This document shows, piece after piece, positions 11,947-32,000 of a DNA stretch of 32,000 nucleotides. Position numbers and translations under genes: made by a program. The stretch's first letter is position 1. The number at the start of each line of letters is the position of its first letter. The notes below the pieces were generated by a model, which was given only the letters and a program-made list of their open reading frames with translations, was not told the DNA's origin and did no database searches. Origin of the DNA: Maledivibacter halophilus (GTDB lineage: Bacteria > Bacillota > Clostridia > Peptostreptococcales > Caminicellaceae); assembly GCF_900167445.1 (NCBI RefSeq), contig NZ_FUZT01000009.1, positions 169,058 through 201,057 on the forward strand, in the 5' to 3' direction.

Positions 11947-12168
11947 CTAAAGATTTTTATTATAATTCATTAATTCTTTTTCTCCCATTTCAACCAGCTT
12001 TTTAGTCATATGTCCACCTACATATCCTCCATAAAAAACATTTTTACCAGAATCAAGACCACTTTCATTAGTTAAAAGATTCTTAGTTATTCCCAATTCA
12101 TTAGCTATTTCATACTTCATTTCATTTAATGCCTTCATTGCGTTTGGATCTACAGGACCTTTAGCCAT
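11947..12168 (-). CDS. Alpha/beta-type small acid-soluble spore protein
   Basis: MKYEIANELGI and GGYVGGHMTKKLVEMGEK motifs of alpha/beta SASPs. Confidence 0.9.
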   Translation of the reverse strand: MAKGPVDPNAMKALNEMKYEIANELGITKNLLTNESGLDSGKNVFYGGYVGGHMTKKLVEMGEKELMNYNKNL

Positions 12169-12452
12169 TATATTTTCACCTCTCTTATCAATATTTCTTA
12201 TATATTATTTTTTTAGGATTTCCTTTTGTTCATACTAGGTAATAAAAGGTTATTAATGATATCATAATGAATATAAATTTTTCATTACTGCTATTTTAAT
12301 CTTTTGATATAGTGAAACTAATTCAAAGATAGATTTATAAATCTTAAAAAATTGCAGAAGCATCGATATTTTTAAAATCTATAAATTAAGTTTTGAGATT
12401 GTTTCACTATATTAAGTTGAAGGAAAAAAGTAAATGTGTTATAATAATTATA

Positions 12453-15761: not shown

Positions 15762-15802
15762 TTGAGAATAGTATATAAAGAAACTTTTAAGGAGAATTAA
15801 TT

Positions 15803-16897
15803 ATGAAAACATATCCAATAAAAGCAATAGATTTTGAGAAAGCAAAAAAAATGCAATTTAAATTAGTAGACATTATCCATCAAAATTTTGATGGATATGA
15901 ATTTCTTCAAGATGGAGATTATGGAGTTGTACCAGGAGTTGGGCAGCCAAGATATACCCAAAAAGTAGAAAGAGTTTTAGCACAGTTTTTTGGAGCAGAG
16001 GAGGCTGTATTAGTTAGAGGATCTGGAACAGGTGCTATTAGAAATGTAATGAATGGAGTATTAAAGCCCAATGGGAAAATATTACTTCATAAAGCTCCCA
16101 TTTATCCTACAACTAAAATTATTGTGGAATCAATGGGACTTGAACCCCAATATATAGATTTTAATAAAATTTGTGATATAAAAATTGAAGATCTTTCTCA
16201 TATATCCTTTGTACTTATTCAACATTCAAGACAGAAGCTGGAGGATAGATATGACTTAAATGAAGTTATTAATAAACTAAAGAGTGTAAATAATGATATG
16301 ACCATATTGGTTGATGACAATTATGTAGTTATGAAGGCAGAAAAAATAGGAGTACAGCTTGGAGCAGATGTAAGTGCTTTTTCACTTTTTAAGCTTTTAG
16401 GGCCTGAAGGGCTAGGGTGTGTTGCTGGCAAAGGAAGCATAATAGATAAAATAAGACAAATGAATTATTCAGGAGGGAGCCAGGTTCAGGGACATGAGGC
16501 GATGAATGCTTTAAGGTCATTAGTATATGCTCCAGTATCCTTAGCAATACAAGCTGAAGAAGGAAATAAAATAGTCTATAGATTAAACTCAGGAGAAGTA
16601 AGGGGAATAAAATCTTCATTTATTGCAAATGCACAATCAAGAGTTGTTTTAGTAGAATTTGAAAAACCAATAGCTAAAGATGTGCTTAAATATAGCTCTA
16701 AGTTAGGGGCGGCTCCTTATCCAATAGGTGCTGAATCAAAATATGAAGTAACGGCTATGTTCTATAGAGTATCTGGAACTTTTCTCAAATCAAATCCTAA
16801 ATTAGAGGATTATATGATACGTATTAATCCAATGAGGGCAGGTGCAGATACTGTTATTCGAGTATTAAAGGAAGCAATTGATAAGGCATTAGAATAG
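15803..16897 (+). CDS. yhfS: YhfS family PLP-dependent aminotransferase-like enzyme
   Basis: VRGSGTGAIRNVMNGVL, LVDDNYVVMKAEKIGVQLGADVSAFSLFKLLGPEGLGCVAG. Confidence 0.87.
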   Translation: MKTYPIKAIDFEKAKKMQFKLVDIIHQNFDGYEFLQDGDYGVVPGVGQPRYTQKVERVLAQFFGAEEAVLVRGSGTGAIRNVMNGVLKPNGKILLHKAPIYPTTKIIVESMGLEPQYIDFNKICDIKIEDLSHISFVLIQHSRQKLEDRYDLNEVINKLKSVNNDMTILVDDNYVVMKAEKIGVQLGADVSAFSLFKLLGPEGLGCVAGKGSIIDKIRQMNYSGGSQVQGHEAMNALRSLVYAPVSLAIQAEEGNKIVYRLNSGEVRGIKSSFIANAQSRVVLVEFEKPIAKDVLKYSSKLGAAPYPIGAESKYEVTAMFYRVSGTFLKSNPKLEDYMIRINPMRAGADTVIRVLKEAIDKALE

Positions 16898-19603: not shown

Positions 19604-19907
19604 CTCTTTATTTTAATGGAGTAAGATAATTGCATAATGTATATAAATTTCTAACTGAAATCCCTACAATATTTATTTGTAAATATGAATTAAATATGCA
19701 ATTTTCTCAAATAGTATTTATATTATATTATTTCTTATAAAATAAAAATTATTATAGATAAAACAATTGCATGATTATTCAGATAAATAGTTTTAACTTG
19801 ATTTCTCTATGATTTAAAAATTTTGGTATAATAGTTATATATAACTATGTTGAAATTTAGATTGTGGAGGCTAAATATTATTATGTAAAATTTAAAATTT
19901 TTAGGAG

Positions 19908-20228
19908 GTGAAGAAAATTACATATAATTCTAAATTAGTCACGGATTTTTTAGATGAGTTGTTTGATGCTATTTTACTACTAAAGGATAGAGAAGAATGT
20001 TACAGGTTTTTTGAAGATATTTGTACTATTAAAGAGCTGCAGGCAATATCCCAAAGGCTGCAGGTGGCAAAGCTGCTAAGAGCAGATAAAACTTATCATG
20101 AAGTAGAGAAAATAACCGGTGCAAGCACAGCAACAATTAGTAGAGTAAATAAATGTCTTCTTTATGGTGCAGACGGATACAATATAATATTAGACAGAAT
20201 TGATAAAATGGAAGGGGAAAGTAAATAA
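19908..20228 (+). CDS. YerC/YecD family TrpR-related DNA-binding protein
   Basis: ELFDAILLLKDREECYRFFEDICTIKELQAISQRLQVAKLL...TYHEVEKITGASTATISRVNKCL; start codon uncertain (see finding). Confidence 0.9.
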   Translation: MKKITYNSKLVTDFLDELFDAILLLKDREECYRFFEDICTIKELQAISQRLQVAKLLRADKTYHEVEKITGASTATISRVNKCLLYGADGYNIILDRIDKMEGESK

Positions 20229-25756: not shown

Positions 25757-25798
25757 AAGTAATAAACTATATTATATAAAAATACTTACTATAACACA

Positions 25799-25882
25799 CT
25801 TCCCTACGGTGGGATTAACCACGTCAGGTTATGAGGGTCAGAAATAACATTTCTATCTCAGCCTATTATATAGGCTCCCCTA
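25799..25882 (-). promoter_or_regulatory. TPP (thiamine pyrophosphate) riboswitch aptamer
   Basis: Minus strand reads GGGGAGCCTATATAATAGGCTGAGATAGAAATGTTATTTCTGACCCTCATAACCTGACGTGGTTAATCCCACCGTAGGGA: canonical GGGG...GGCUGAGA, GACCC, AACCUGA, GGUUAAU, CCGUAGGGA THI-box elements. Confidence 0.97.
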
Positions 25883-26059
25883 GTTACTATTAAATTTTTT
25901 CTTCAAAGGAATTATAACATGTTTTGAAGAATTTTACAACATAAATGATTAGTCTAAAAGAAAAAAATTCTTAAAGTACAAATTATTGTAAGAAAATAAT
26001 GGAGGGAAAAGATGGAATATGTAGAATTATAGAAACATACAGAATTTAACATTCTATTA

Positions 26060-26389
26060 TTTATATGTTAGCCAGGCATTAAGTTCTATTAAATTTTTAT
26101 ATAAATATGTTTTAAGCAAGGAAAGAAAAGATAGATATACAATTCTTTCCCAAATAGTTTTAAATATTCTTAGGGAATATGCAAAATATGAAAAACCAGA
26201 AGATTGGTTATTTACAGGAGGAAAAGAAGGTGAATATTTAAAGGAACGATCAGTTCAACTCTTAGATATATACAAGAAGTATTAGGGCATACAAGTTCAA
26301 AGACCACCGAAATATATACTCATGTGAGTAAAACAAACTTAACAAAAATAAAAAGTCCTTTAGATAAAATATTAAAAAAAGACAATTAA
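26060..26389 (+). pseudogene. Degraded tyrosine recombinase (XerC/D- or IntI-like) with two internal deletions
   Basis: Translated pieces: SQALSSIKFLYKYVLSKE | RKDRYTILSQIVLNILREYAKYEKPEDWLFTGGKEGEYLKERS | SSTLRYIQEVLGHTSSKTTEIYTHVSKTNLTKIKSPLDKILKKDN*. The last piece is in a different frame; the central catalytic part is missing. Confidence 0.85.
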
Positions 26390-26437
26390 TATTACTAATA
26401 GAAAGGTTTTAAAGGTATATACAGCTATAGGAAAGCA

Positions 26438-26462
26438 TTACCGACATAAATAGTCGCGTAAC
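26438..26462 (+). repeat. Boundary hairpin motif, copy 0
   Basis: TTACCGACATAAATAGTCGCGTAAC. Confidence 0.45.
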
Positions 26463-26471
26463 ATACTTATC

Positions 26472-26505
26472 TAGAAGTATTAGCGACATGGGTTAGTCGG
26501 TAACG
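26472..26505 (+). repeat. Boundary motif copy 1 (tagaagtattagCGACATgggttAGTCGGTAACG)
   Basis: Near-identical to 28759-28792. Confidence 0.7.
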
Positions 26506-26629
26506 CATTAGTTAGATAAAATTCCCAACTCATTTCGGAGATTACTATTGGGTTATTTAATATTGGATTAGAATATGAGTTGTGAATAATCAATAGATGA
26601 AGTATATTTATGAAGATTGAGGGGATGGT

Positions 26630-27586
26630 TTGATTATGTATCTAAAAAGAAAATATATTAGTCTATTATATGTATTAATAATTGCTCTTACTGTTGGGTG
26701 TAGCAACAGTATGGAAGAAATTGTTTACAATTTTCCTTTAGAAAGAGATGTAGTAGAGCAAGTAATATTAGAGAAACAATTAACTTGGCGCATAGAAGAT
26801 GAACAATCTCTTAACGAAGGCCAATCAAATTTCTCATTAAGAGATGAAGATAACGTTTTTTGCAGTATAAATAGTACAGACGGAGAATGGGGAAGAGTTA
26901 TAATATTACAATTCCATTTTCCACTAGATTATACAACAGAGCAAATACAGCAGTTTAATAAAGAAGAATGGCCTAGTATATTTGAACTTACCTGTACTTT
27001 TTACGGAAATAGTAAAAATGCAAAAAAAATCTATAAAGAGTTTTTAGGTTATTTAAAAGGCAGGAACAGTAATGAATATGATTATGGATACTTTACAAAA
27101 CGTATAGACGATACTCATTTTAGAGTAAAATTAGCTCCATTCACAAATAATAGCAACTATTATCAAATAGCTACTTTAGAAATTTTAAATAGTGAGACTT
27201 ATGAAAAAAGAGCATTTGAATTTGCAAAAGGATGGATAAATAGGGCAAAAAGACAAGGAATAAAAGTATTAGACAATATTAGTGTTTCTGATATTATAGA
27301 AATTAAAACAGAAGATGAGGAATTACGGTTAATTGTTGAAGGTCATTTAGAGGATATTCAAGAATTAAAAAATATACCTAAAAATCTTCAAGAAGTACTT
27401 ACCCATCACGCACATAAGGACGACTATTTTACCGCCAAGTTAGTGGACGATACTAGTAGTATGGATGTGTTTGTTCTTGCTACTTCTCTTAACTCTAGAG
27501 AATTAGGACAAGATAGAAGTCATCATATTAATTATTATACTAAAGGGAAATTAAGTGTTATAAATTTTAGTCCATTAAATGAATAA
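26630..27586 (+). CDS. Hypothetical lipoprotein
   Basis: Signal peptide with lipobox LTVGC; 318 aa; no recognised domain; RBS GAGGGG upstream. Confidence 0.75.
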   Translation: MIMYLKRKYISLLYVLIIALTVGCSNSMEEIVYNFPLERDVVEQVILEKQLTWRIEDEQSLNEGQSNFSLRDEDNVFCSINSTDGEWGRVIILQFHFPLDYTTEQIQQFNKEEWPSIFELTCTFYGNSKNAKKIYKEFLGYLKGRNSNEYDYGYFTKRIDDTHFRVKLAPFTNNSNYYQIATLEILNSETYEKRAFEFAKGWINRAKRQGIKVLDNISVSDIIEIKTEDEELRLIVEGHLEDIQELKNIPKNLQEVLTHHAHKDDYFTAKLVDDTSSMDVFVLATSLNSRELGQDRSHHINYYTKGKLSVINFSPLNE

Positions 27587-27745
27587 AGAATATTTGAATA
27601 ACAAGTATGAATATAAAGTTGCTACTTCTTAAAACATAAAGAAAAATTTACTATTTTCAACTATCATAAAGGTTATTTTAATATAAATGATTTAAAAGAT
27701 ATTTATTTACATTAAATTGAGAATAAAAAATTAAGGAGATTAATA

Positions 27746-28411
27746 ATGAATGAAAAACAATTAATTGCAGAAAAAGCAGTTGATTTTATCAAGGATGGAA
27801 TGATTGTTGGCTTAGGAACAGGTTCAACTGCTTATTGGGCAATTACAAAAATAGGTGAATTAGTTCGAAATGGTATGAATATTAAAGGTGTTCCAACATC
27901 TATAAATACAGAAAAATTAGCACAAAATTTAAATATTCCTTTAGTGAATATTTCTGAGATTAAAAAAATAGATATAACAATTGATGGGGCTGATGAGTTT
28001 GATGAAAATAAAAATGTTATAAAAGGTGGTGGAGGTGCACTTTTAAGAGAAAAAATTATTGCTTCAATTACTAATTATTATATTATAATAGCTGATTCTT
28101 CTAAAAAAGTAGAAGTTTTGGGAAACTTTCCATTACCTATAGAAGTAACTCCTTTTGCTCATGAGATAACAATTTATCAATTAAAACAGTTAGGATGTTC
28201 AACGAATTTAAGGTTAGAAAATGACAAACCATTTATAACTGATAATAAGAATTTCATAGTTGATTGCAAATTCAATAGGATTAACAAACCAGAAGAATTA
28301 GCAAATAAATTAAATAGTATTCCAGGTGTTGTAGAGCATGGATTATTTTCAAATATGGCAGATATTCTAGTTACCGTAAATAATTGTGGAGAAATTTCAA
28401 TTATTGAATAG
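27746..28411 (+). CDS. rpiA: Ribose-5-phosphate isomerase A
   Basis: VGLGTGSTAYWAI, DITIDGADEFDENKNVIKGGGGALLREKI, full-length with RBS AAGGAG. Confidence 0.95.
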   Translation: MNEKQLIAEKAVDFIKDGMIVGLGTGSTAYWAITKIGELVRNGMNIKGVPTSINTEKLAQNLNIPLVNISEIKKIDITIDGADEFDENKNVIKGGGGALLREKIIASITNYYIIIADSSKKVEVLGNFPLPIEVTPFAHEITIYQLKQLGCSTNLRLENDKPFITDNKNFIVDCKFNRINKPEELANKLNSIPGVVEHGLFSNMADILVTVNNCGEISIIE

Positions 28412-28439
28412 CATTATATGATAGCTTATTTAAATTACT

Positions 28440-28790
28440 ATGGAGGCGGTTTTCATAGGTCGAGCGACCACATCATCTAACATTGTGTTTAGCGTAAAGG
28501 TGCGCAGAAGAATTGTACGCGTTGGAACACATACTGGACATGATAACCTTAAGACTAGATTATATTCACATTTTAGAGGAAAAAATCAAAGAAGTAGTAT
28601 TTTTAGGCGGAATATTGGTCGGGTTTATTTAAATAAAGATAATAAGAATTATTTACCAATTTGGAATTCCAGTAGAAATAATAAGAGTTCAACTCTTAGA
28701 TATATACAAGAATTATTAGGACATAGAAGTTCAAAGACAACAGAAATATATACTCATTTAGAAGTATTAGCGACATATGAGAGTCGGTAA
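28440..28790 (+). pseudogene. Chimeric ORF: GIY-YIG-like nuclease remnant joined to tyrosine recombinase C-terminal fragment
   Basis: RIVRVGTHTGHDNLKTRLYSHFRGKNQRSSIFRRNIGR (GIY-YIG-like family) followed by SSTLRYIQELLGHRSSKTTEIYTH and an out-of-family tail LEVLATYESR derived from the boundary motif. Confidence 0.7.
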
Positions 28791-28792
28791 CG
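28759..28792 (+). repeat. Boundary motif copy 2 (tagaagtattagCGACATatgagAGTCGGTAACG)
   Basis: Near-identical to 26472-26505. Confidence 0.7.
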
Positions 28793-28808
28793 TAACATAT
28801 GCCTATAT

Positions 28809-29426
28809 TTGTTAAACCGAGGAGGTCAAAAAATGAGATATATTTTTGCAATTGGTGGAGGAGAAATAAGTGAGTTAGAAACATTTGGTATAGATAAAAA
28901 GATAGTTGAAGCTGCTAAAAAGGCTAAACCGAATGTATTATTTATACCTACAGCTAGTGGAGAACCACAAGGATATATAGATTCATTTAACAACGTATAT
29001 GGTAAAAAGCTTGGATGTAAGACAGATGTCCTTTTATTGTTAGAAGGTAAAATACTTTGTGGTTTAAGTGCTGGCTCAATTTGCTGGTTTAAAAGTGGCC
29101 ATGGTGACTCTGAAAGTTTTGAAACAGAAGGTAAATGGAATTATATAAGGGTAGAAGGAATAAACCTATTAGATGCTATGCACTGTCCACACTATAATGA
29201 AGATAATAGAGAAGAAGATTTTTCAAAGAAGATATTAGAATATGATGAGATTGGTATAGCTATTGATAACAACTGTGCAATTGAATTTAAAGAAAATAGC
29301 TATAGAGTACATAAAACAGAAAAAGAAGCAAAAGCTTACAAAGTTTATCTAGACAAGGGACAAATTATAAAAGAAGAGTTGGTTAATATAACAGAGTATA
29401 AGTCAGTTAAAAGAGTTGTTTTGTAA
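28809..29426 (+). CDS. Peptidase E-like (S51 / class I GATase-like) protein, probably internally deleted
   Basis: Possible start ATG 28830. FAIGGGEI..., GLSAGSICWFKSGHGDS, GIAIDNNCAIEF motifs; the GGGNT-type middle segment expected between TDVLLLL and EGKILCGLSAGS is absent. Confidence 0.75.
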   Translation: MLNRGGQKMRYIFAIGGGEISELETFGIDKKIVEAAKKAKPNVLFIPTASGEPQGYIDSFNNVYGKKLGCKTDVLLLLEGKILCGLSAGSICWFKSGHGDSESFETEGKWNYIRVEGINLLDAMHCPHYNEDNREEDFSKKILEYDEIGIAIDNNCAIEFKENSYRVHKTEKEAKAYKVYLDKGQIIKEELVNITEYKSVKRVVL

Positions 29427-29443
29427 GTAGGGCATACGATCAC

Positions 29444-29583
29444 CTAACAATGCCTTACCGTTCGCTACGTGAAGTAAGTTTCTAGGGTTAGTGAAGCACA
29501 TGTTTTCACTGGGTGCAATCACCACCAAGGAGTATTCTTTATGGGTCCGTTCAAGCACGTAGGCAAGCCGAGATGTTAAGCGA
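29444..29583 (+). repeat. Structured intercassette element A (~140 nt)
   Basis: ACCTAAC...GTTAAGC ends; stems CTTAC/GTAAG, AGTGAA/TTCACT, GGTG/CACC; strongly similar to element C. Confidence 0.8.
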
Positions 29584-29621
29584 AAATTAGTGGTAACTAC
29601 ATTTAAATGAAGGTGGTTTAT

Positions 29622-30125
29622 ATGAAAATCTTAATATTTCTTCATGGAACAATAATAATGCATAAAAATGGTCTTGATAAAAGTAGAGAAGAAAGAGTAA
29701 AGCAAGTTTTGAGTGATGATAACTCAATTCATGATTTTTTAAATTATATTCCGATTGGTAAGTCATATGAAAAATTAAAAATTTGGGTTAAGCAAGAAGT
29801 GGAAATTTTCTATCTCAGTTCCAACCAGTTACTTGATGATATAAATAAAGATCTTTTTGTTTTGAGAAAATATGAATTTCCAAAAGGTAAATTGTTATAT
29901 AGAAAAAATGGTCAAAGTTACAAAGATATTGCAGAAGAAATAATACCAGACATTCTGATTGAAGATAATTGTGAAAGTATTGGTGGAACAGCTGAAATGG
30001 TTTACCCAAATATGTCAAGTTTAATAAAAAAACAAGTTAAATCTATTGTATTAAAAGAATTTGAAGGAATAGATAAGTTACCAACTAATGTTGAAGATTT
30101 AAAAGACTGGTATAAAATAGTTTGA
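29622..30125 (+). CDS. Hypothetical protein, possibly HAD-like
   Basis: MKILIFLHGTIIMHKNGLDKSREERVK...VFVLRKYEFPKGKLLYRK-like...IPDILIEDNCESIGG. Intact ORF; ORF-track start is 29607, with internal ATG 29622 after GAAGGTGG. Confidence 0.75.
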   Translation: MKILIFLHGTIIMHKNGLDKSREERVKQVLSDDNSIHDFLNYIPIGKSYEKLKIWVKQEVEIFYLSSNQLLDDINKDLFVLRKYEFPKGKLLYRKNGQSYKDIAEEIIPDILIEDNCESIGGTAEMVYPNMSSLIKKQVKSIVLKEFEGIDKLPTNVEDLKDWYKIV

Positions 30126-30155
30126 ATCTTTGTGTCATGGGAATCACTAACCATC

Positions 30156-30278
30156 GTCTAACAACGAATTTACGTAAAGGTGCTTTTAGAGAAGATTATT
30201 GAGGTAGATGAACCACATTTCTTCACTAAGGGTAGCCGCCTTAGAGTTCAGAGACGTCGCAAATACAAAACGTTATCT
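30156..30278 (+). repeat. Structured intercassette element B (~123 nt)
   Basis: GTCTAACAACG...AACGTTATC ends; stem CTAAGG/CCTTAG; shares CCACAT..CTTCACT, GGGT, GTTCA, ACGT and ACGTTA blocks with A and C. Confidence 0.65.
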
Positions 30279-30340
30279 AACATTTTATTTCATTTTTTAT
30301 TTATAGAATTATTTGAGCTTGTACAGGAGGCGATTAAATA

Positions 30341-31134
30341 ATGGGCAAATTTCATGATGTCAATTTTATTAATCTACCATATAAATTAAAATCAATGCAT
30401 TGTTGGAAAAAGATACTATTGGTTGTTCTAGTTCAGAGATATTTTTTCTTGAAGGTATCTCAAGTGGAGGAAATGCATATTTGAAAGTCTGTAGTAGTGA
30501 AAGTGATTCTATGGAAAAAGAAAAAAATATTTTAAATTGGCTGGATGGGAAAGTACCTGTTCCAAAGGTGCTTCATTATAATGTTTTCGATAATAAACAA
30601 TTCATGCTAATTTCAGAAATAAAAGGTTTAAATGCAGCTCATTATTATTATACTTCTAAACCAGCCACAGTTGACACAATGTTAGCAAGATCTCTTAGAT
30701 TAATTCATGATATAGATATAACGTGCTGTCCATTTGATAGTAGGCTTAATATAAAGATTGGTGAAGCCAAAAAACGTGTTGATTGTGGATTAGTGGATGA
30801 AAATAACTTTGAAGAAAATTATATATGAAAGGCAAGTGAAGAATTATATAAAATGGTTTTAGAAAAGAAACCTGATAATGAAGATTTTGTTTTTACTCAT
30901 GGTGATTATTGTATGGCTAACATAATATTATTGGGTAATAAATTGAGTGGATTTATTGATTTAGGAAGAGCAGGAGTTAGTGATAGATATCAAGATATAG
31001 CATTAGCAGTACGTAGTTTTGAACATAATTTTGGAACAGACAAGTGGAATGATTTATTTTATAAAGAATATGGCATTGAAGATGTGGACTATTCTAAAAT
31101 AGAATTTTATATTTTGCTTGATGAATTGTTTTAG
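30341..31134 (+). pseudogene. Aminoglycoside phosphotransferase (APH(3')-like), disrupted by a frameshift and an in-frame stop
   Basis: GKVPVPKVLH, RLIHDIDITCCPF, FVFTHGDYCMANIIL, GFIDLGRAGVSDRYQDIALAVRS, FYILLDELF. In-frame TGA at 30826-30828; frameshift near 30390-30405. Confidence 0.88.
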
Positions 31135-31155
31135 AAAAAGGGAATGAAATAAAAC

Positions 31156-31303
31156 GTCAGATAATAATACCTTGCCGTTCACTGTGTAAAGCAAGTTTTT
31201 AGGGTAAGCGCAGCACATACCTTCACTGGGAGCAAGCTCCACCAAGAGAGCATTCCTTACGGGCCCAGTTCAGGCACGTCGGCAATCCGGGACGTTAGCT
31301 GAC
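31156..31303 (+). repeat. Structured intercassette element C (~148 nt)
   Basis: GTCAGaTAA...TTAgCTGAC complementary ends; stems CTTGC/GCAAG and GGAG/CTCC; closely matches element A. Confidence 0.8.
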
Positions 31304-31441
31304 ATCGGACAAAAAGATAGCCGCGCGTCCATGTGCAGATTTGATAGGGATGAACTATGTAGAAGTTTAACTCAATAGTTAGATATGACTAAATAACAAA
31401 TGATTATAAAATTAATACTATTTAAATTGGAGGTAAAATCA

Positions 31442-31933
31442 ATGGAAGCAAAAGTAAGACAAGCAGTAGATAGTGATAGAGATATTTTTGTTGATTACAC
31501 AGTAAAATTAAGTAAATTCAATCGAAGTAATCATGCTAATGAATCAAAAAATGATGATTATGAATCAGTTTTAAATGCAATACAAAGAAAAGCTGAAAAA
31601 ACATTCTGTAATAGAAATGAAGAGACTTTAATCTTAATTGCAGAATTAGAAAATAAACCTGTAGGATATGCATTAGGCAGAATATATGAACAGGATGAAA
31701 CAGCTGATAATGGAACAGGTTTAATGGGATTATTTGATGAGTTATTCGTTGATGATATAGCAAGAGGGCTTGGATTAGGACAAAAACTATTAGATAAAAC
31801 GATTATCTGGATGAAAGAAAAAGGAATTAATAGAGTTAAATTACATGCTTATTCTTGGAACAGTAATGCTAAAAAAGTATATGAACGAAATGGTTTTAAA
31901 GAATATGCAGTATCGTATGAAAAGTTTATCTAA
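31442..31933 (+). CDS. GNAT family N-acetyltransferase
   Basis: VKLSKFNRSNHANE, GLFDELFVDDIARGLGLGQKLLDKTIIWMKEKGINRVKLHAYSWNSNAKKVYERNGFKEY. Confidence 0.9.
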   Translation: MEAKVRQAVDSDRDIFVDYTVKLSKFNRSNHANESKNDDYESVLNAIQRKAEKTFCNRNEETLILIAELENKPVGYALGRIYEQDETADNGTGLMGLFDELFVDDIARGLGLGQKLLDKTIIWMKEKGINRVKLHAYSWNSNAKKVYERNGFKEYAVSYEKFI

Positions 31934-32000
31934 TTTTATCGCATCATGAATATATTTTTAATCATAGTATTTTAGCTAATATTATTTATACTATATGAAA

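Follow-up and report, generated by a model that had tools for sequence, protein, structure and literature searches.

The 32,000-nucleotide (nt) stretch of Maledivibacter halophilus DNA studied here (contig NZ_FUZT01000009.1, positions 169,058 to 201,057; hereafter the window) carries, towards its end, three attC-like elements, which we call A, B and C, together with the genes that they follow and the remnants of a tyrosine recombinase gene upstream of them. How far this arrangement resembles an integron, and how widely it recurs among the Clostridia, is the subject of the present analysis.

The cassette array in the window

A preliminary description of this sequence had reported three codirectional genes, each trailed by a GC-richer element, and the coordinates, the base composition (GC fraction 0.39-0.58 in the elements, about 0.25-0.30 in their surroundings) and the covariance scores all agree with it. 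Element A (29437..29586) has its TAAC end, the R'' box, at 29445-29448 and its GTTA end, the R' box, at 29575-29578. Element B (30151..30283) is a short, degenerate form with TAAC at 30159-30162 and GTTA at 30272-30275, and element C (31154..31305) has a degenerate R'' box, TAAT, at 31162-31165 and GTTA at 31294-31297. All three are assigned to the minus strand, the bottom strand being the one modelled as folding. Over 90 nt, elements A and C share 78% identity; B is homologous but shorter. When a covariance model (R1) built solely from related elements of other genomes was run over the 32-kb window, C scored 95.3 bits, A 77.9 and B 77.6 (E 7e-27 to 1e-21); the next best match reached 9.7 bits (E 0.27), which leaves A, B and C as the only significant matches. 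The repeat elements are real and far beyond chance, and their scores (78-95 bits) lie below those of canonical copies from other genomes (about 100-134 bits).

The genes that accompany these elements are all on the plus strand. Ahead of element A lies a peptidase S51 gene (28833..29426, Pfam PF03575; labelled 'peptidase E-like' before), which is also a gene call in strain L001 of the same species. Cassette 2 (29576..30272, limits that assume a G|TTA crossover) consists of a hypothetical open reading frame (ORF) at 29622-30125 and element B; the ORF has no Pfam match, so that its former designation as HAD-like is unsupported. In cassette 3 (30273..31294), which ends in element C, the APH-like gene seen before does match PF01636, but it is not intact: the match falls on two pieces (30400-30828 and 30853-31134), and a gene split into two ORFs is taken to be a pseudogene. 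Cassette 4 (31295..32000) begins the part of the array that runs out of the window. Its GNAT acetyltransferase (31442-31933) was correctly named as the last gene, as judged by Pfam, and its element lies beyond the window, at 887-1047 of the contig continuation L082. Taking strain L001 and L082 together, the array in M. halophilus extends over 21 kb or more and has about 18 cassettes, with an element after every gene.

Upstream of these cassettes, the recombinase gene survives as two plus-strand remnants. Remnant 1 (26115..26389), recognized from translations, tblastn with the protein P0005 and alignment, has been disrupted by a frameshift and has lost its HxxR box through an internal deletion, and its C-terminus reads LGHTSSKTTEIYTHVSKTNLTKIKSPLDKILKKDN up to the stop codon. 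It is followed by an attI-like region (26390..26514, plus strand) that contains TTACCGAC/GTCGGTAA repeats, a hairpin at 26435-26507 with a strong fold z-score of -3.8, and a GTTA junction at 26511-26514, after which the first cassette opens with GAT. This first cassette (26512..28532, plus strand) holds a lipoprotein-like ORF (26630-27586) and rpiA (27746-28411, Pfam PF06026) and ends 3' of rpiA in a truncated element, Z (approximately 28470-28532; TAAC at 28478-28481), which has kept nothing but its 5' arm (nhmmer match 28471-28508, E 0.004). Element Z is interrupted by the plus-strand remnant of a GIY-YIG-type gene (28533..28685, approximate limits), PF26468 being recorded for the corresponding 116-aa ORF in L001 and L002. 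Next comes remnant 2 (28686..28792; Pfam PF00589, tblastn), whose recombinase part (28686-28760) represents the C-terminal 24 codons, forms with 26252-26323 a pair of direct repeats of 93% identity, and, owing to a deletion, runs directly into the attI-like hairpin's 3' half (28750-28792). Public assemblies list a 116-aa gene at 28440-28790, but this ORF is a chimera that joins the 5' half of element Z to a GIY-YIG_3 fragment and the C-terminus of the recombinase, and it is almost certainly no real gene.

As the recombinase is destroyed, element Z truncated, the APH gene a pseudogene and the site scores low, the local array is probably inactive, that is, a fossil that would move only if recombinase were supplied in trans. 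The array begins directly after an ordinary minus-strand thi operon (thiS-thiF-thiG-thiH-thiC-thiE), and from about 26.1 kb to the end of the window all genes are on the plus strand. The ThiC, ThiH and RpiA proteins match those of M. halophilus (Bacillota, Clostridia, Peptostreptococcales, Caminicellaceae) exactly. A thiamine pyrophosphate riboswitch (RF00059, 78.3 bits) is located at 25784-25891 on the minus strand, ahead of the operon.

Structure and folding strand of the elements

The element has a consensus of about 155 nt, whose 5' part reads ACATC-nnn-TAAC-AAT-rtGTTTACG-cAAGG-[GGTGC...GCACC]-ACATCCCTTCACCGG- and whose 3' part continues -[GGAGC GAA GCTCC ...]-CCGGTTCAGGGACGT-CGTAAACac-GGAGAC-GTTA-nnnGAmAT. 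It folds as one long imperfect hairpin with TAAC/GTTA ends that are invariant or nearly so, and it comprises the R box (TAAC/GTTA), an asymmetric internal loop of 5/2 nt, the L box, an optional side hairpin on the R''/L'' arm, a 12-bp conserved stem and an apical hairpin. No conserved single-base bulges (extrahelical bases) were seen in the consensus structure. The L box occurs as the covariants GTTTACG/CGTAAAC, GTTCACG/CGTGAAC, ATTTGCG/CGCAAAT and ATTTCCG/CGGAAAT, and each of its pairs shows 10-16 compensatory changes. A short subtype of 113-127 nt, which contains ATTTCCGTTCGCTACGCACA in its 5' arm and has no side hairpin, occurs at eight loci (L017, L023, L031, L033, L037, L073, L074 and L077), and elements A and C of the window (here taken as 29436-29590 and 31153-31309) are akin to it.

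In the bottom-strand alignment, 97.4% of the cells pair, against 92.3% in shuffled alignments (none of 500 as high), while slid controls give 36-50% pairing; double-sided changes number 94 where 29 are expected, a count that again none of the 500 shuffles attained. RNAalifold applied to a mixed-length alignment of 79 sequences recovered the L box only, and the clean result was obtained with the 47 elements of the main length class. The preliminary description had called the elements structured, and the covariation across genomes bears this out. Single-sequence folding energy does not, as A, B and C, folded as DNA on both strands, do no better than shuffles (z +1.0 to -0.8); the term 'structured' is therefore based on comparative evidence and not on thermodynamics.

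The non-Watson-Crick cells are distributed unevenly between the strands. There are 156 top-strand A.C cells, equivalent to G.T on the bottom strand, against 56 top-strand G.T cells, of which 37 stem from one doubtful pair. Several positions switch between G-C and A.C, and the alifold energy is -32.2 kcal/mol for the bottom strand and -25.6 for the top. This wobble asymmetry favours the bottom strand as the likely functional fold, which agrees with integron attC sites and differs from what a sense-strand RNA would show. A known noncoding RNA family had been considered from the outset as an explanation that would speak against cassette exchange, and Rfam 15 holds no family that matches the elements at gathering score in the window and six canonical loci. 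One match to the osmY RNA motif (RF03036; L020 5927-6035, minus strand; 23.4 bits, gathering score 46.9, E 0.014) falls in a cassette 5' leader, just downstream of an element, and is probably due to chance.

Distribution, cassette limits and the linked recombinase

An exact pattern taken from the 3' arm of the element was used to scan 185,579 species genomes and matched 79 genome stretches, almost all of them from Clostridia. The genera concerned are Alkaliphilus (five species), Natronincola, Tissierella, Brassicibacter, Sporosalibacterium, Proteiniborus, Vallitalea, Anoxynatronum, Marinisporobacter and Anaeromonas, along with many metagenome-assembled genomes (MAGs). The scan is not exhaustive, since it missed M. 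halophilus even though elements B and C fit the pattern. A hidden Markov model (nhmmer) built from 47 elements of the main length class located 291 element copies in about 70 of the pattern-matched loci, and no copies in roughly nine non-Clostridial stretches that look like chance pattern matches. Within every locus the copies lie on a single strand at intervals of 0.7-1.2 kb, with as many as 10 in 8 kb, and they sit 3' of small ORFs on the same strand. The 172 cassettes that could be delimited have a median length of 936 bp; in 159 of them the longest ORF shares the strand of the element, and in 12 it lies on the opposite one. The family search proposed in the preliminary description has thus returned hundreds of copies placed 3' of unrelated accessory ORFs in head-to-tail arrays, the cassette genes including those for GNATs, a ParE toxin, CPT, APH, glyoxalase, HD and PHP proteins.

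In Alkaliphilus peptidifermentans DSM 18978, at least 10 draft contigs, many of them 1.6-8 kb long, consist of nearly nothing but cassettes (L006, L012, L021, L028, L030, L038, L042, L047, L061 and L063). The array or arrays of this organism must be very large, breaking the assembly as Vibrio superintegrons do. Canonical elements are also carried by three contigs binned as Petrimonas (L069), Thermosipho (L077) and Halanaerobiales (L074); their presence on contigs assigned to non-Clostridial or distant taxa reflects either mis-binning of MAGs or cassette transfer across phyla.

The limits of the cassettes can be read from the bases that flank the elements. The triplet that precedes TAAC complements the triplet that follows the GTTA of the previous element at 90/78/90% (n=159); when it is compared with the triplet that follows the GTTA of its own element, the values are 45/43/40% (n=203), and random pairs give 45/34/37%. 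The rare GAAC R'' boxes are preceded by GTTC in 3 of 7 cases, a co-variation that places the crossover 5' of the fourth base. Homologous cassettes found in different genomes among unrelated neighbours point the same way: in A. pronyensis and A. hydrothermalis (93% identity over 716 nt), A. serpentinus and MAG M1-B18 (93%), and L029 and L027 (87%), similarity opens right after the GTTA of the previous element and ends at the GTTA of the cassette's own element. Taken together, the triplet rule and the GTTA-to-GTTA homology indicate that the crossover lies in GTTA, where it had been expected, and that the cassettes are discrete units, as in integrons. In the window, the first cassette obeys the triplet rule (GAT at 26515-26517 against ATC before the TAAC of element Z), as does cassette 3 (TCT against AGA before the R'' box of element C); cassette 2 breaks it, which is consistent with decay.

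Some arrays also contain reverse transcriptase (RT) genes. In C. formicaceticum (CP020559.1, L084), three group II introns (12111-12369, 15792-16051 and 19804-20063; Rfam RF02005, 129-146 bits), each with an RT ORF, begin 28 nt past the 3' end of three attC-like elements, in cassette orientation, and recall the group IIC-attC introns of classical integrons. The array of A. metalliredigens (L083) holds RT genes as well, one of them interrupted by a serine recombinase.

The preliminary description had noted a decayed IntI/XerC-like recombinase just upstream of the elements and in the same orientation. Two remnants are indeed present; the recombinase itself resembles IntI and XerA but carries no IntI-specific domain. 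A search with a 93-aa remnant returned short fragments only, and full-length homologues were obtained by tblastn on the loci. Nine scan loci encode the tyrosine recombinase, four of them as an intact copy, and in all nine it lies upstream of the elements and is co-oriented with them. This layout recurs in the complete genomes of A. metalliredigens QYMF and C. formicaceticum, so that the common recombinase that had been looked for near the arrays is found in nine scan loci and two complete genomes. No other recombinase recurs in the loci. In the nine scan loci, the 70-130 nt past the recombinase stop codon contain repeated (T)TACCGAC/CCGAAC-type motifs and close with a GTTA junction, beyond which a cassette opens in the typical way; the window likewise has a repeat-bearing region and a GTTA junction at this distance. 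In 5 of 6 loci, and also in the window, the first element has an R'' box that agrees with the triplet after this attI-like junction, and one locus has a compensatory GTTG/CAAC pair there.

The recombinase proteins are 31-33% identical to IntI1, and the closest solved structure to the intact homologues is that of VchIntIA (2a3v, E 1e-42). Against TIGR02249 the intact homologues score 215-232 bits, in two stretches, where the cutoff is 265 and the IntI1 control reaches 508. Two of them exceed the cutoff of 220 for NF040815 (XerA/'integron integrase') with 226.9 and 235.9 bits, and a third, whose sequence is gapped, scores 214.7 bits. The catalytic R, K, HxxR, H and Y residues are kept in the intact homologues, and in the alignment about 41 IntI1 residues that form the IntI-specific domain are absent from them. 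The window remnant keeps the region of the domain site and has the short form there, with no IntI-specific insertion. These proteins belong to a very large family (more than 7700 proteins at E<=1e-40) and bear the RefSeq name 'site-specific tyrosine recombinase/integron integrase', which indicates that their likeness to integrons has been noticed at the protein level only.

Relation to integrons and alternative explanations

In light of these results, the region very probably represents the decaying proximal part of an array of mobile cassettes on the chromosome, an array that functions in the manner of an integron. The array, boundary, recombinase and Rfam tests all support the cassette-mobilizing, integron-like interpretation advanced in the preliminary description. 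Each cassette comprises a small promoter-proximal ORF and a recombination site of about 130-160 nt, an imperfect palindrome in the order TAAC (R''), spacer, covarying L box, optional side hairpin, conserved long stem, apical hairpin, L' box, spacer and GTTA (R'). In the mechanism that we propose, a dedicated tyrosine recombinase, whose gene lies directly upstream and points the same way and which belongs to an IntI/XerA-like group without the IntI-specific insertion, would bind the bottom DNA strand of the site in its folded state and cleave GTTA 5' of the A. Cassettes would be excised as circles and inserted at the attI-like GTTA junction, about 70-130 nt downstream of the recombinase stop codon. 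Sequence analysis establishes the architecture, the covariation, the wobble bias towards the bottom strand, the cassette limits, the position of the crossover and the linkage to the recombinase and the attI-like region; the single-stranded DNA substrate, the chemistry and the identity of the acting enzyme would follow by analogy with integrons.

The nearest known systems are the sedentary chromosomal integrons, such as the Vibrio cholerae superintegron with its VCR-type attC sites and VchIntIA. Both have long co-oriented arrays of single-ORF cassettes of about 1 kb, each ended by an imperfect-palindrome site with conserved AAC...GTT ends, and in both the sites are homogeneous within an array; the bottom strand folds in the integrons and probably does so in the Clostridial system. 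The crossover falls in the GTT core, so that the bases beyond it belong to the next cassette; an attI-type junction lies beside the tyrosine recombinase gene; and the cassettes are rich in GNAT acetyltransferases and toxin genes. The Clostridial recombinase differs, however, in having no IntI-specific domain. In IntI, this domain contacts extrahelical bases (2a3v), and instead of conserved extrahelical bases the Clostridial site has an asymmetric internal loop and an optional side hairpin. Further differences are a site sequence conserved across several orders, a recombinase gene co-oriented with the cassettes, a host in the phylum Bacillota, and the absence of detection by IntegronFinder 2.0 in the published table for A. 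metalliredigens. Co-orientation of intI and cassettes is also known from the 'inverted' integrons, e.g., that of Treponema denticola, and is common to the Clostridial arrays; the integrases of inverted integrons, however, carry the additional domain of IntI, and the standard model detects the attC sites that go with them. In functional terms the Clostridial system is probably an integron, whereas the definition used in the field, which asks for the IntI domain and the standard attC model, would leave it outside.

The recombinases may also be compared with the Xer enzymes of the XerA type (NF040815; PDB 5hxy, 4a8e), with which they share the passing of the NF040815 cutoff, about the same length and the lack of the IntI insertion. 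Xer enzymes act at a single double-stranded dif site of about 28 bp in chromosome dimer resolution. In contrast, the Clostridial gene heads arrays of up to dozens of hairpin sites of about 155 nt that bound mobile cassettes (dif-like sites were not searched for).

Among the alternatives, the one that survives best is an ordinary integron remnant of the classical family, i.e., a group of clustered attC sites without an integrase (CALIN), in which IntI has decayed and nothing is distinct. Such a remnant would likewise present ORFs followed by imperfect palindromes with AAC...GTT ends, a bottom strand that probably folds and recombinase remnants nearby, and the proximity to the VchIntIA structure (2a3v, E 1e-42) and the presence of TIGR02249 among the best NCBIfam matches speak for it. 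Nevertheless, we consider it unlikely, as the homologues remain below the TIGR02249 cutoff (215-232 against 265 bits) and are missing about 41 IntI1 residues, and the window remnant retains the domain-site region in its short form. Moreover, the sites are about 155 nt long, conserved in sequence across families and equipped with a side hairpin, the recombinase is always co-oriented with the array, and IntegronFinder 2.0 returns 0/0/0 for A. metalliredigens QYMF despite the recombinase and at least four sites.

It is less probable still, indeed very improbable, that the sites are real but are acted upon by another enzyme (host Xer, a different integrase or group II introns), the adjoining recombinase being a frequent passenger. 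The size of the recombinase family, of which 11 contexts were inspected, and the group II introns 28 nt past three C. formicaceticum sites would be in line with this possibility, but the recombinase stands at the head of the array and is co-oriented in 11 of 11 contexts, the repeat region and GTTA junction adjoin it in nine loci and the window, with the triplet match in 5 of 6 loci and the window, and no second recombinase recurs in the loci. Finally, selfish repeats of the MITE (miniature inverted-repeat transposable element) or REP (repetitive extragenic palindrome) type, or structured RNAs or terminators in 3' untranslated regions, with no role in cassette exchange, can be put aside as most improbable: the elements are GC-rich, intergenic, hairpin-forming and conserved in sequence, with RNA-like conserved unpaired motifs, but they lie on one strand per locus, always 3' of ORFs and at regular gene-sized spacing, where MITE/REP-type repeats occur in either orientation with target-site duplications; their flanking triplets obey the cassette rule and not duplication; neither a MITE nor an RNA model explains the complementarity with the previous element and the GTTA-to-GTTA blocks; the wobble pairs are on the antisense strand of the upstream gene; and no Rfam family reaches gathering score in the window or the six canonical loci.

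Several points weigh against reading the arrays as an integron-like system. Apparent conservation is inflated because an exact pattern from the 3' arm served to seed the element set, and draft genomes or MAGs contributed many of the loci as 8-kb fragments. The sequence of the elements is far more conserved across genera than that of classical attC sites, and this conservation could reflect an additional or a different function. Linkage of the recombinase to arrays was checked for only 11 members of its family. The case for a single-stranded DNA mechanism is built on the wobble asymmetry, which an antisense RNA would match as well. In addition, the precise gain or loss of a gene with its element, which the preliminary description had hoped to see between strains, did not emerge from the only strain pair compared. 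Strain L001 (SRR31549800) is without about 8.5 kb of the array, a segment that starts within the ORF at 29622-30125 and stops a short way upstream of the PHP gene, but the junction falls at a 15-nt repeat, GTTTAATAAAAAAAC (window 30019-30033, L001 9749-9763, L082 6745-6759), and the deletion is a microhomology event and not a precise cassette excision.

We think it likely, though with less confidence than for the nature of the region in the window, that Clostridia (Peptostreptococcales, Tissierellales, Vallitalea and relatives) carry a widespread integron lineage of their own, in some genomes probably active, that combines an IntI/XerA-like recombinase without the hallmark domain with a long, conserved attC-type site and is missed by current detection. 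Of the published surveys, one reported that Firmicutes contain no complete integron (PMC4889954), another that they contain just one, from Limnochorda, along with a few CALINs (10.1101/2022.02.28.482270), and those based on IntegronFinder called this near-absence unexplained (PMC4889954; 10.1101/2022.02.28.482270). Table S1 of the IntegronFinder 2.0 paper lists 0 complete integrons, 0 CALINs and 0 In0 for A. metalliredigens QYMF, although this genome carries the recombinase and at least four sites. No description of a Clostridial cassette system was found in the full-text literature; paywalled work may differ.

If such a lineage exists, the reported near-absence of integrons from Firmicutes would in part be a detection artefact, and a separate cassette system in Clostridia would partly answer the puzzle that this near-absence has posed. 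The system would also open a large and unexplored pool of cassette genes in anaerobes. Furthermore, it would provide a natural experiment on how a tyrosine recombinase recognizes folded sites without the IntI domain, a question that bears on the engineering of recombinases and on the origin of integrons from Xer-like enzymes.

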